A stretch of 64,000 bases of DNA, taken from IMG/VR virus record IMGVR_UViG_3300022750_000190; one strand, 5' to 3'. The translations under genes and the position numbers were made by a program. Each line of letters starts with the position of its first letter. The stretch's first letter is position 1. Below are positions 3,206-7,096 of this stretch, one piece after another. The notes below the pieces were generated by a model, which made no database searches, was not told the DNA's origin, and saw only the letters and a list, made by a program, of their open reading frames with translations. The stretch comes from a virus. Lineage: Duplodnaviria > Heunggongvirae > Uroviricota > Caudoviricetes.

Positions 3206-3291
3206 GGGAAGTAGTTTAGCGGTTAAAACATCAAGACTCCTGCAGGCTGAGTTTTGAAGATGGGACAGTTCGAATCTGTCCTTTCCCACCA
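3206..3291 (+). tRNA. atypical tRNA-like gene (extended anticodon arm; anticodon not assignable)
   Basis: Acceptor GGGAAGU/CUUUCCC, D-arm GTTTAGCGGTTAAAAC, T-arm GACAGTTCGAATCTGTC, A73 and CCA are all tRNA-like. The anticodon region folds as a 9-bp stem UCAAGACUC/GAGUUUUGA with a 9-nt loop CUGCAGGCU. Confidence 0.35.
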
Positions 3292-3710: not shown

Positions 3711-4243
3711 TTAGACGAGTCCTTCGGGACGCTGCATTATCGTCACAAGTGTTATCCAATATGGCAACTTCTATTGGATGAACGACGATATTGTAGGTTG
3801 GAAGTTGCAAAATTCAGGATTTAAAGAACGGTAAAACCAATGCTGATATAGGTTGGTTTTGGGCTAGTCCTTCGGGGCGCTGCATTATCGCCCAAGCGTC
3901 AATCAATATGGCAACTTCTATTGATTGAACGACGATAGTGCAGTTTTGAAGTTGTGATTTTTGTTCCAAAATACGATAGAACTATGTTTTATCCAATCCT
4001 TCGGGGTGCTTAAATATTGTCAAAGTGTCAAATAACATGGCAACTTCTGTTATATGAACGATGATATTTCGGTTTGGGAGTTGCAAGATTTGATGTTGTA
4101 AAGAACGGTAAAGGCAGTGCTGATATAGACTGACTTTGGGCTAGTCCTTCGGGGCGCTGTTACAATGCCGGTGTGTCAATCAGTATGGTGTCTTCTGTTG
4201 ATTGAATGACGTTGCTAACAGTTAGGGAAGACACATTTTTTTT
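3711..4243 (+). ncRNA. tandem array of four homologous structured RNA elements of about 140 nt, organised as a duplicated dimer, ending in an intrinsic terminator
   Basis: Units begin near 3717, 3867, 3996 and 4144, each with a UUCG-capped hairpin GUCC-UUCG-GGAC. They share a long-range helix (GCUGCAUUAUCG...CGACGAUAUUG) and an internal hairpin. The 19-mer CTAGTCCTTCGGGGCGCTG is identical at 3863 and 4141. Compensatory changes keep pairing (GCAACUUC/GAAGUUGC in units 1-3 versus GUGUCUUC/GAAGACAC in unit 4). U8 tract at 4236-4243. Confidence 0.5.
4187..4243 (+). terminator. intrinsic terminator closing the structured-RNA array
   Basis: Stem GTGTCTTC...GAAGACAC with a nested CTGTT/AACAG hairpin, followed by TTTTTTTT. 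Confidence 0.5.
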
Positions 4244-4275
4244 GTTACATTATTTTGTCACGAAGAGAGGTTATT

Positions 4276-4485
4276 ATGTCATTAGTTGAATTTGGTTTGA
4301 ATACAGGTTTTAATTATCGTCTTCAAAAAGATGCTGATGCTATTAATGATAAATACAATAACAAAATCAAAAACACTTCTTTTCGTGGTGAAATTGTAAA
4401 ACTTGATACACAAAGGCGTGATGAATTAAGCAAATTGCATACTTCACATGGCAAAAAATATCAAGGTAGGGGATTCATCGAATAA
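4276..4485 (+). CDS. hypothetical small protein
   Basis: ATG at 4276 preceded by AAGAGAGG 6 nt upstream. The track ORF starts at TTG 4255. Confidence 0.45.
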   Translation: MSLVEFGLNTGFNYRLQKDADAINDKYNNKIKNTSFRGEIVKLDTQRRDELSKLHTSHGKKYQGRGFIE

Positions 4486-5290: not shown

Positions 5291-5379
5291 GGGGAGGTAG
5301 CTCAGTTGGTCAGAGCGAATAACATAGATTCTAGAGTCTCGTTATGATGTCGGTGGTTCGAATCCACCCCTCCCCACCA
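5291..5379 (+). tRNA. atypical tRNA-like gene, 89 nt, with a perfect tRNA frame but a 17-nt insertion in the anticodon arm
   Basis: Acceptor GGGGAGG/CCUCCCC, U8, D-arm GCTCAGTTGGTCAGAGC, T-arm GGTGGTTCGAATCCACC, A73, CCA. Anticodon stem AUAAC/GUUAU encloses AUAGAUUCUAGAGUCUC. Confidence 0.4.
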
Positions 5380-6793: not shown

Positions 6794-7096
6794 ATGACTG
6801 ATGCATATATTTTAAAAGAAGTTGAAGCCGTTACTACAATCGCTAAAAATATTTTTGGTGACATTGTTCATAAAGTCTATTATGCAGAAGTGCATTATGA
6901 CCATAGAGAAGAATCTCAAACCATCAGTATGATTGATAGACAAATAACAAGTGCTTGCAACTCAGAAAAATCGATTGACCAAGATGCAAAAACAATTATT
7001 ATTGAGTTTACAAATGGTCGAAAAGTAGTATTCTCAAACTCCGAATGGGGTAGCATGGAGGCTTTTTCTGATGATGAGTATAAAAAGATTGTTTAA
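6794..7096 (+). CDS. hypothetical protein
   Basis: 100-aa ORF with RBS GAGGAT. Confidence 0.45.
   Translation: MTDAYILKEVEAVTTIAKNIFGDIVHKVYYAEVHYDHREESQTISMIDRQITSACNSEKSIDQDAKTIIIEFTNGRKVVFSNSEWGSMEAFSDDEYKKIV

Follow-up and report, generated by a model that had tools for sequence, protein, structure and literature searches.

We report an 89-nucleotide (nt) element resembling a transfer RNA (tRNA), located on the + strand at positions 5291 through 5379 of a 64,000-nt stretch of the virus record IMGVR_UViG_3300022750_000190 from IMG/VR; the element is herein called the target gene and the whole stretch of DNA analyzed is called the window. Judged from its sequence, the target gene probably encodes a conserved, functional, non-decoding tRNA-like RNA (a tRNA mimic). 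Its conservation in distantly related giant phages points to a working look-alike rather than to an ordinary tRNA or a dead gene. Read directly, the target gene is GGGGAGG-UA-GCUC-AGUUGGUCA-GAGC-G-A-AUAAC-AUAGAUUCUAGAGUCUC-GUUAU-G-AUGUC-GGUGG-UUCGAAU-CCACC-CCUCCCC-A-CCA, and its parts are as follows:

5291 through 5297, + strand: 5′ strand of the acceptor stem, GGGGAGG, with 7/7 Watson-Crick pairs to 5369 through 5375; invariant in the orthologous loci L021 through L024 and L026.
5298 through 5299, + strand: the U8 and A9 connector, from the sequence and positions 8 and 9 of the Rfam tRNA model.
5300 through 5316, + strand: D arm, GCUC / AGUUGGUCA / GAGC, with a 4-bp stem and A14, G15, G18, G19, and A21.
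5317, + strand: G at position 26, from the Rfam alignment.
5318 through 5323, + strand: 5′ strand of the anticodon stem, A-AUAAC, in which A29 through C33 pair with G51 through U55 (element numbering).
5324 through 5340, + strand: the 17-nt segment AUAGAUUCUAGAGUCUC in place of a 7-nt anticodon loop, from the sequence, the Rfam alignment, and the minimum free energy (MFE) fold.
5330 through 5335, + strand: the apical palindrome UCUAGA, invariant, which reads U-CUA-G-A like an anticodon loop.
5341 through 5346, + strand: 3′ strand of the anticodon stem, GUUAU-G, from the Rfam alignment and RNAalifold.
5347 through 5351, + strand: variable loop AUGUC, 5 nt, with G46 and C48, from the Rfam alignment.
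5352 through 5368, + strand: T arm, GGUGG / UUCGAAU / CCACC, with a 5-bp stem, from a T-arm scan and the fold.
5369 through 5375, + strand: 3′ strand of the acceptor stem, CCUCCCC, paired with 5291 through 5297.
5376 through 5379, + strand: discriminator A73 and a genome-encoded CCA, from the sequence.

The L-shape nucleotides of the target gene are complete (U8, A14, the G15:C48 Levitt pair, G18, G19, G26, G46, and the UUCGAAU T loop). The Rfam tRNA model RF00005 scores it at 54.8 bits (gathering score 29; E = 1.7e-10), well outside what chance would give; all tRNA parts fit the alignment, and an 18-nt insertion is placed at the anticodon-loop positions. An earlier note on this DNA had described a perfect outer frame with an insertion inside the anticodon stem. 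The frame is recovered in full at the same coordinates (7/7 acceptor pairs, A73-CCA, U8, and the D and T arms), and the pairing of AUAAC (5319 through 5323) with GUUAU (5341 through 5345) does enclose exactly 17 nt (5324 through 5340), or 19 nt in the Rfam register. The location of the insertion needs correction. In the standard (Rfam) register the 5-bp anticodon stem is A28-A32/U52-G56 (element numbering) and C33-G51 is an additional pair closing the 17 nt; the extra sequence is present but replaces the loop, and the stem is uninterrupted. The outermost pair of this stem, 28:56 of the element (27:43 in tRNA numbering), is A.G in the window and G.U in orthologs.

Folding without constraints gives the same arrangement. 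The MFE structure of the 89-mer is a cloverleaf with an extended anticodon arm (−30.9 kcal/mol, z = −2.4), in which AUAAC/GUUAU is followed by a small internal loop (2x1) and then by AGAUU-CUAG-AGUCU. The RNAalifold consensus of the arm has a 6-bp stem, a 2x1 internal loop, three base pairs (AGA/UCU), and an 8-nt loop, K-UCUAGA-R. A 7-nt anticodon loop with U33 and purine 37 on a 5-bp stem is thus what the target gene lacks. As a canonical type I tRNA would, it has the acceptor stem, A73-CCA, U8, D and T arms, a 5-nt variable loop, a 5-bp anticodon stem, and a tRNA-operon setting; unlike one, it lacks the 7-nt loop and, in the standard register, U33, no anticodon can be assigned to it, and its stem encloses 17 to 19 nt. 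It passes the tRNA score threshold but fails at the defining anticodon loop, and we do not file it as a tRNA.

ARAGORN nevertheless labels the target gene as an 89-nt tRNA-Met(cat). The fold behind the label has a D stem of three positions with one standard pair, a 4-bp anticodon stem, the loop AACAUAG (which places A at position 33), and a variable region of ∼20 unpaired nt; forcing the ARAGORN stem costs 2.5 kcal/mol relative to the MFE for the window copy and 7.7 kcal/mol for the ortholog, where one stem pair is lost. On that 94%-identical ortholog (L021, and likewise L024) the call is ‘tRNA-???(at)’; on the L025 copy there is no call. Intron mode returns ‘tRNA-Asp(atc) i(37,10)’ for the target gene and Arg(cct) i(40,8) for element B, another altered tRNA-like in the same array (3205 through 3291). 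Given these poor fold energies and mutually inconsistent calls, the Met isotype label is an artefact: the software does not recover an ordinary tRNA, since Met(cat) requires an implausible fold, and no anticodon or isotype is stable across orthologs. A type II fold with a long variable arm was also tried and set aside; it is energetically worse and broken in the ortholog.

An ordinary 89-nt tRNA-Met(CAU) whose variable region is long, or an amber suppressor reading through the apical U-CUA-G-A loop, is therefore highly improbable. Besides the ARAGORN label, such a reading can draw on the length of the target gene, which is that of the type II tRNA-Tyr genes sharing its acceptor and T arms, on the apical loop UCUAGA, on the AGA/UCU pairs that also form the top of the Tyr anticodon stem, and on a canonical tRNA(CUA) that lies on a related megaphage contig. 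The ribosome uses a fixed distance from anticodon to CCA, and the CUA triplet, ∼12 nt beyond the real anticodon position, conflicts with it. The window also has no sign of TAG recoding: TAG ends 4/54 long plus-strand open reading frames (ORFs), and ignoring it as a stop raises ORF coverage by 4% only. A working amber suppressor was set aside on this arm geometry and on the use of TAG as a stop in the window. The tRNA(CUA) itself is a canonical amber-suppressor tRNA on the metagenome-assembled genome (MAG) contig DJWL01000096.1 (L040:12452-12527; ARAGORN ‘tRNA-Pyl’), a related megaphage contig binned as Flavobacteriaceae; it directly follows a tRNA-Asn, and a gene like those of class I aminoacyl-tRNA synthetases (12595 through 13770) lies just downstream.

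The target gene is also conserved across megaphages. The window is part of a megaphage: a protein encoded in its tRNA array was matched on a 604,209-bp ENA metagenome contig, and its ORFs include tryptophanyl-tRNA synthetase (TrpRS) and thymidylate synthase among many ORFans. Relatives were found through a 100-amino acid protein encoded at 6794 through 7096, which gave 34 homolog clusters, several on contigs of 0.4 to 1.85 Mb. In a second megaphage clade (L021 through L026, six assemblies), in which this protein is 60% identical, the element was found over its full 89 nt, with identities of 94.4%, 93.3%, and 90.9%. Between the window and L021, the tRNA body outside the anticodon arm is identical at 59/60 positions, the anticodon arm at 25/29, and the 17-nt insert at 15/17; the insert differs only at 5329 (U39 to G) and 5336 (G46 of the element to A), which flank the invariant UCUAGA. 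Variation of the D arm among orthologs is confined to D-loop positions 20 and 21. Over the same comparison, bona fide tRNAs of the array are 90 to 100% identical, protein-coding DNA is 68 to 76% identical, and third positions of identical codons in two flanking genes are 49 to 65% identical, which is near saturation. Homology stops exactly at the CCA; the sequence 3′ of it, at 43 to 50%, is not homologous. Firmly conserved are the tRNA body, the UCUAGA centre, and, in the arm, the first six pairs together with AGA/UCU.

The orthologs do not look like products of decay, the other outcome besides an ordinary tRNA that the earlier note had set against its claim: identity is 91 to 94% overall and 15/17 in the insert, with the neighboring protein at 60%. 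Relaxed constraint would have left the target gene closer to the synonymous sites (49 to 65%) than the 94% of the whole element and the 59/60 of the body, in two diverged lineages. The array supplies its own example of decay. Element D, which is intact in the window immediately upstream of the target gene (5152 through 5236), is represented beside the ortholog by a copy (L021:4414-4478; also in L024) that has no T arm, has a diverged 3′ half, and is barely alignable, while an intact D copy lies elsewhere (L021:6411-6495); the arrangement is suggestive of a duplication in the array with later decay of one copy. A tRNA pseudogene, perhaps Tyr-related, that arose by a loop insertion or a palindromic duplication and persists through short time or a recent segment exchange is accordingly rather unlikely in our view. 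The absence of a coherent readable anticodon, a weak inner helix that is not kept as structure, a leader as conserved as the insert (which could mean recent transfer), the damaged acceptor stem of L025, and the occurrence of decayed tRNA-like copies in these arrays would all suit it. They have to be set against a 59/60 body between clades with ∼60% protein identity and saturated synonymous sites, an element intact in six assemblies, a change at 28:56 (A.G to G.U) that improves pairing, an adjacent decayed D copy that lost whole arms over the same history, and homology that ends exactly at the 3′ end of the target gene.

Several observations weigh against a functional, non-decoding RNA as well. 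Conservation of the insert (88%) does not exceed that of the leader next to the target gene (88.5%), and because the leader is as conserved as the insert, we give the conservation of the insert less weight. The anticodon arm holds four of the five substitutions; the other one is in the variable loop beside it. Selection on the insert is not separable from selection on the block of leader and gene as a whole or from a recent exchange of this operon segment between clades, and a role that needs the tRNA body alone is conceivable. Only two diverged sequence types of the target gene were retrieved, and between them the inner helix has no covariation support. This helix, AGAUU/AGUCU with a CUAG loop, is weak (arm alone −4.2 kcal/mol, z = −1.3); its sole variable pair, U.G in the window, is an unpaired G.A in the ortholog, and the inner fold is predicted differently for the two clades. 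The L025 copy, which sits at a contig end, has two mismatches in the acceptor stem. Among 40 ORFs from the window and from beside the orthologs, Pfam scans detected nothing tRNA-related except TrpRS, and no partner protein.

A covariance model of the element (R1), run on 26 sources (∼0.48 Mb in all), found no members outside the window and L021 through L026. Nucleotide searches of GenBank phages gave generic T-arm and tRNA matches and no homolog; exact or gapped DNA patterns matched nothing in IMG/VR and found no homolog in Joint Genome Institute (JGI) metagenomes, where unrelated odd tRNA-likes were the only return, or in GTDB genomes. Protein-anchored searches of IMG/VR with array-adjacent ORFs reached only relatives that are distant or lack the element, and one close relative (L009) ends just short of the array.

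The target gene stands in a tRNA array (∼1850 through 7400) that is organized in operons with strong sigma-70-like promoters. ARAGORN finds 13 tRNAs in the array, and scanning for T arms and acceptor stems adds at least eight further tRNA-shaped elements. The features of the array that bear on the target gene are the following:

3205 through 3291, + strand: element B, a tRNA frame whose anticodon stem has 9 bp and whose loop, CUGCAGGCU, has 9 nt (Rfam 37.3 bits).
3429 through 3505, + strand: element C, a tRNA frame with an aberrant 19-nt anticodon arm (Rfam 30.5 bits).
4771 through 4799, + strand: sigma-70-like promoter TTGACG-17-TATAAT, an 11/12 consensus match, heading the operon of the target gene.
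4820 through 4990, + strand: element E, a 171-nt RNA with a tRNA-type acceptor, T arm, CCA, and a large internal insert, from the scan and fold.
5152 through 5236, + strand: element D, an acceptor and T arm with one long hairpin replacing the D and anticodon arms, from ortholog comparison.
5237 through 5290, + strand: 54-nt leader between element D and the target gene, conserved (L021:4479-4532).
5838 through 5867, + strand: terminator-like hairpin and T-run closing the operon of the target gene, from a sequence scan.

This setting bears on the possibility that the target gene is a processing signal only, that is, a tRNA body serving as an RNase P/RNase Z site that punctuates the transcript, for example by releasing the 54-nt leader or neighboring RNAs, with the anticodon arm as disabled filler. 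We consider it unlikely, though it accounts for a good deal. Substitutions cluster in the anticodon arm and spare the body (59/60); the inter-element leader is itself conserved (88.5% over the 60 nt upstream of the target gene, 5231 through 5290 against L021:4473-4532); and the operon is dense in varied tRNA-likes, some of which keep the acceptor and T arm only. The leader would be a discrete small RNA if both flanking elements are processed. An acceptor and a T arm suffice for minimal RNase P/Z substrates, and conservation of the target gene goes beyond that need, extending to the D arm, G26, G46, C48, and the first six pairs of the anticodon stem. The insert is kept at 15/17 despite saturated synonymous sites, and the tRNA-Asn that starts 15 nt downstream has its own processing signals.

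The extended arm also resembles the anticodon-intron helix of archaeal and eukaryotic pre-tRNAs, in which extra nucleotides likewise pair with the loop in an elongated anticodon arm. The target gene could then be an intron-containing pre-tRNA from which 10 to 12 nt are excised by a phage or host endonuclease and ligase to leave a decoding tRNA. In its favor are the ARAGORN intron-mode calls for the target gene and element B, the position of both variable insert nucleotides inside the putative 10-nt intron, and the MFE of the ortholog arm, a 3-nt bulge beside a 3-bp helix that is similar to a bulge-helix-loop. We enumerated by hand the single excisions that leave 7 nt and found none with U33, purine 37, and an anticodon fitting A73 and the body: the products have A33, or a pyrimidine or a variable base at 37, and position 33 is A in the standard register. 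At the exon-intron junctions, a bulge-helix-bulge has a 4-bp helix with a 3-nt bulge on either side; the window copy has a 2x1 internal loop instead, and the ortholog only one 3-nt bulge and the 3-bp helix. The intron-mode calls are arbitrary, and the ARAGORN labels are mutually inconsistent. Group I introns are self-splicing, have helices P1 through P9, and are at least ∼200 nt long; the 17-nt segment is far too short to be one, and there is no Rfam intron hit. No splicing endonuclease or ligase was found among the 40 ORFs scanned; the window represents 64 kb of the 604-kb genome. On the intron-mode calls, the excision products, and the missing bulge-helix-bulge, we rejected an intron as the main explanation of this gene of a bacterial virus and regard it as improbable; the idea of a pro-suppressor tRNA in such a virus, activated by protein splicing or in some other way, is about as improbable.

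At the level of DNA, the near-perfect 14-bp palindrome centered on TCTAGA could be a site that a protein binds or a nuclease recognizes and that lies within a tRNA gene by coincidence. In favor of this, TCTAGA does not vary, the sequence CCTGCAGG of element B occurs once in the window against 0.1 to 0.2 expected, and the phage genome avoids many GC-rich palindromes. Such a site would scarcely explain the data, as conservation spans the whole tRNA-shaped gene with exact RNA boundaries, well beyond the palindrome, and the window has 14 TCTAGA sites, close to expectation; of all explanations we find this one the hardest to credit. A depleted restriction site was also considered and dropped, TCTAGA not being depleted in the window. 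As an observation on the window at large, the 64 kb lack many 6-bp palindromes that contain G and C, among them GGATCC, GTCGAC, CTCGAG, CAGCTG, and CACGTG (0 observed against ∼5 expected), and CTAG is under-represented (74 observed, 192 expected); the absent GC-containing 6-bp palindromes and scarce CTAG suggest restriction avoidance.

We return to the target gene as a tRNA mimic and consider how it might act. As with the neighboring tRNAs, RNase P and 3′ processing would release it from the transcript, and the matured RNA is predicted to fold into the L shape. The anticodon arm, ∼12 nt longer and with no canonical loop, would be unable to reach or read a codon, and the RNA would then act through its intact upper body. 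The RNA may thus be a competitor or decoy for a protein that recognizes tRNA bodies, or at minimum a processing module. The closed, elongated arm would keep the RNA out of translation and may add a specific contact. That the target gene encodes a functional non-decoding tRNA-like RNA acting in trans seems to us somewhat better than an even bet. Other uses of the arm are more distant. Self-complementary loops, UCUAGA in the target gene and CCUGCAGG, could in speculation support a kissing-loop dimer, in which the UCUAGA duplex would be weak. An antisense target was sought, and no complement of the 17-mer was found beyond chance in the window or the loci.

The acceptor and T arms of the target gene match those of phage tRNA-Tyr genes. 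The segment from 5355 through 5379 (T arm, acceptor strand, and ACCA) is an exact 25-nt match to 8/8 IMG/VR hits, all of them phage tRNA-Tyr(GUA) genes (L057 through L064), and all eight share the 5′ strand GGGGAGG with the target gene. The best GenBank phage hit is also a tRNA-Tyr (Phage C48C1, OQ984149.1; 100% over 30 nt, 5350 through 5379) and has that 5′ strand as well. The likeness consists of an identical acceptor stem, A73-CCA, and T arm, and of a similar overall length (85 to 89 nt); the AGA/UCU pairs that top the inner helix of the target gene are also those at the top of the Tyr anticodon stem. The target gene differs in its type I D arm, a 5-nt variable loop in place of the long arm, and the absence of GUA, its anticodon-like loop reading CUA on an additional helix.

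Septu and retron-Eco7 PtuAB nucleases are reported to cut tRNA-Tyr in the variable arm, and the tRNA-Tyr of T5 to resist cutting owing to a different variable loop. A Tyr body without the arm that these nucleases cut could be an uncleavable decoy shaped like tRNA-Tyr, with Tyr acceptor and T arms and no variable arm for Septu/retron PtuAB to cut. Of the specific versions this is the one we favor, though with low confidence. Against the Tyr lead stand a likeness that does not extend past the acceptor and T arms, a D arm of type I, and near matches of 90 to 94% in GenBank phages that include tRNA-Phe and tRNA-Ser. Doubtful to a similar degree is the broader proposal that megaphages of 0.6 to 0.8 Mb keep a family of anticodon-less decoys, among which the target gene, with a Tyr body and a sealed anticodon arm, would bind and titrate immune nucleases or toxins directed at tRNA while escaping destruction and staying out of translation.

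The architecture of the target gene has a precedent in engineered ‘tRNA scaffold’ RNAs, in which the anticodon stem-loop is the insertion site for a hairpin; the tRNA machinery of bacteria recognizes, processes, and stabilizes them, and they are processed and stable in Escherichia coli (Ponchon and Dardel; PMC3753655). In both, the acceptor, D, and T arms are kept and a closed hairpin insert occupies the anticodon position; the scaffolds are artificial and carry large cargo RNAs, whereas the insert of the target gene is 17 nt, natural, conserved, and known here from sequence. The closest natural phage precedent is the pair RNAC and RNAD of T4 (species 1 and 2 stable RNAs), which are encoded directly beside the T4 tRNA genes and whose function is still unknown (PMC9697503). 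In RNAC, a T arm of the tRNA type is accompanied by an acceptor-like helix; unlike the target gene, the two RNAs fail the tRNA model (best 17.5 bits, tRNA-Sec), are 119 to 139 nt long, and have no cloverleaf, and no sequence similarity to the target gene was found in either. The tRNA-like domains of transfer-messenger RNA (tmRNA), which also has an mRNA-like domain encoding a tag, and of the bacterial Y RNA YrlA, whose two ends form a Ro-binding helix, are also non-decoding mimics of the acceptor/T-arm part; unlike the target gene, they do not have a full cloverleaf with free acceptor ends and a normal D arm. Neither is present here: ARAGORN and Rfam find no tmRNA at the target gene, and the YrlA model (RF02553) reaches 19.6 bits, on the T arm only, against a gathering score of 69.

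The target gene is not alone in its array. The earlier note had proposed a whole class of tRNA-like genes with altered anticodon arms beside normal tRNAs, and this is supported, elements B, D, E, and F all having orthologs and further examples occurring at other megaphage loci. It had also likened the target gene to the element at 3206 through 3291; the extended arm is indeed there in element B (9-bp stem, 9-nt loop), but the architectures differ between members, and the class is heterogeneous. In the B ortholog (L021:1341-1426) all nine stem pairs are kept (9/9) through three one-sided changes, the loop is invariant, and the T stem has four compensatory double changes. The two elements that had seemed to resist a canonical fold are odd in different ways. 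Element D does not have separate D and anticodon arms, and one acceptor pair is compensatory in its 87%-identical ortholog (L021:6411-6495); element C has the aberrant 19-nt arm, and no full-length ortholog was found in the loci fetched. Element E has orthologs or paralogs at L021:3934-4103 and 4119-4291, and element F (10644 through 10808), for which an ortholog is present, is an RNA of ∼170 nt with tRNA-type ends. At other loci, L035:6926-7009 has an anticodon arm with a 5-bp stem, a 3x3 internal loop, and GGC-AAU-GCC; L037:5796-5874 has a 7-bp stem with a 3-nt loop; and L015:11265-11340 and L035:8591-8665, from different megaphages, have a short stem capped by the same AGAA tetraloop.

Longer RNAs with tRNA-type acceptor stem, T arm, CCA, and large inserts (∼140 to 170 nt) were also seen at L015:7790-7928 and L035:7010-7147, the inserts of which share the motif GAUGGGGAAACGCCCCG; together with elements E and F they recall T4 RNAC. 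A different odd tRNA-like, unrelated to the target gene and without a normal anticodon arm, reads GUAGCUCAGUUGGUUAGAGCACUACCGCUCUCUAUGACCCACGCCAAAAUCGGUGG... and is sometimes tandem (L028:1769-1961, L030:5171-5255, L032, and L033); it came from the metagenome scan, where a 1.3-Mb contig was among those carrying it. Within the window, four tandem copies of a structured-looking unit of ∼96 to 150 nt (UCCUUCGGGGCGCUGCAUUAUCG...AUGGCAACUUCU...) follow directly after a tRNA-Arg (3690 through 4240; spacing ∼129 to 148 nt); they are 77 to 82% identical to copies at L021:1620-2130 and match no Rfam family. Between tRNA-Asn and tRNA-Thr (5523 through 5650) there are three short repeats ending in ...GCGCACCAGAAA, like a tRNA 3′ acceptor strand with ACCA, two of them inside 37-nt hairpin-forming units (ACCUUUC...GAAAGGU).

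Segmental duplication appears to have built the array. The window holds tRNA genes in duplicate, identical or nearly so, including three copies of Leu-UAA (1853 through 1937, 4581 through 4665, and 30511 through 30595) and at least four of Met-CAU (among them 5002 through 5078 and 7319 through 7395); promoter modules are repeated as well (3037 through 3110 and 4503 through 4575). Short-read assemblies of relatives break at the array repeats. Elsewhere in the window, the TrpRS gene (33672 through 34667) is 65% identical to a gene in CAKLQH020000002.1, labeled ‘Acinetobacter phage MD-2021a’. The neighborhood of that gene (sucABCD, sdhABCD, gltA, and rpoD) is that of a bacterial chromosome, and the record appears mislabeled; the match hints at a gammaproteobacterial (Moraxellaceae-like) source for the TrpRS gene.

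The usual roles given to phage tRNA genes are compensation for codon usage and, more recently, replacement of host tRNAs destroyed by immune nucleases. Conserved tRNA bodies without decoding ability fit neither explanation, and point to a third viral use of the tRNA shape, for example as decoy, scaffold, or processing module. The literature searched contained no account of conserved tRNA mimics without an anticodon in the tRNA arrays of huge phages. The target gene belongs with the viral tRNA-like RNAs, as a variant. For annotation it is a trap, since a ‘tRNA-Met’ label from ARAGORN would inflate and distort the tRNA inventories of huge phages. Were the decoy with a Tyr body to prove true, megaphage arrays would be linked directly to the arms race over tRNA-Tyr recently shown for Septu and retron systems, and the target gene would be a natural counterpart to the engineered tRNA scaffold.

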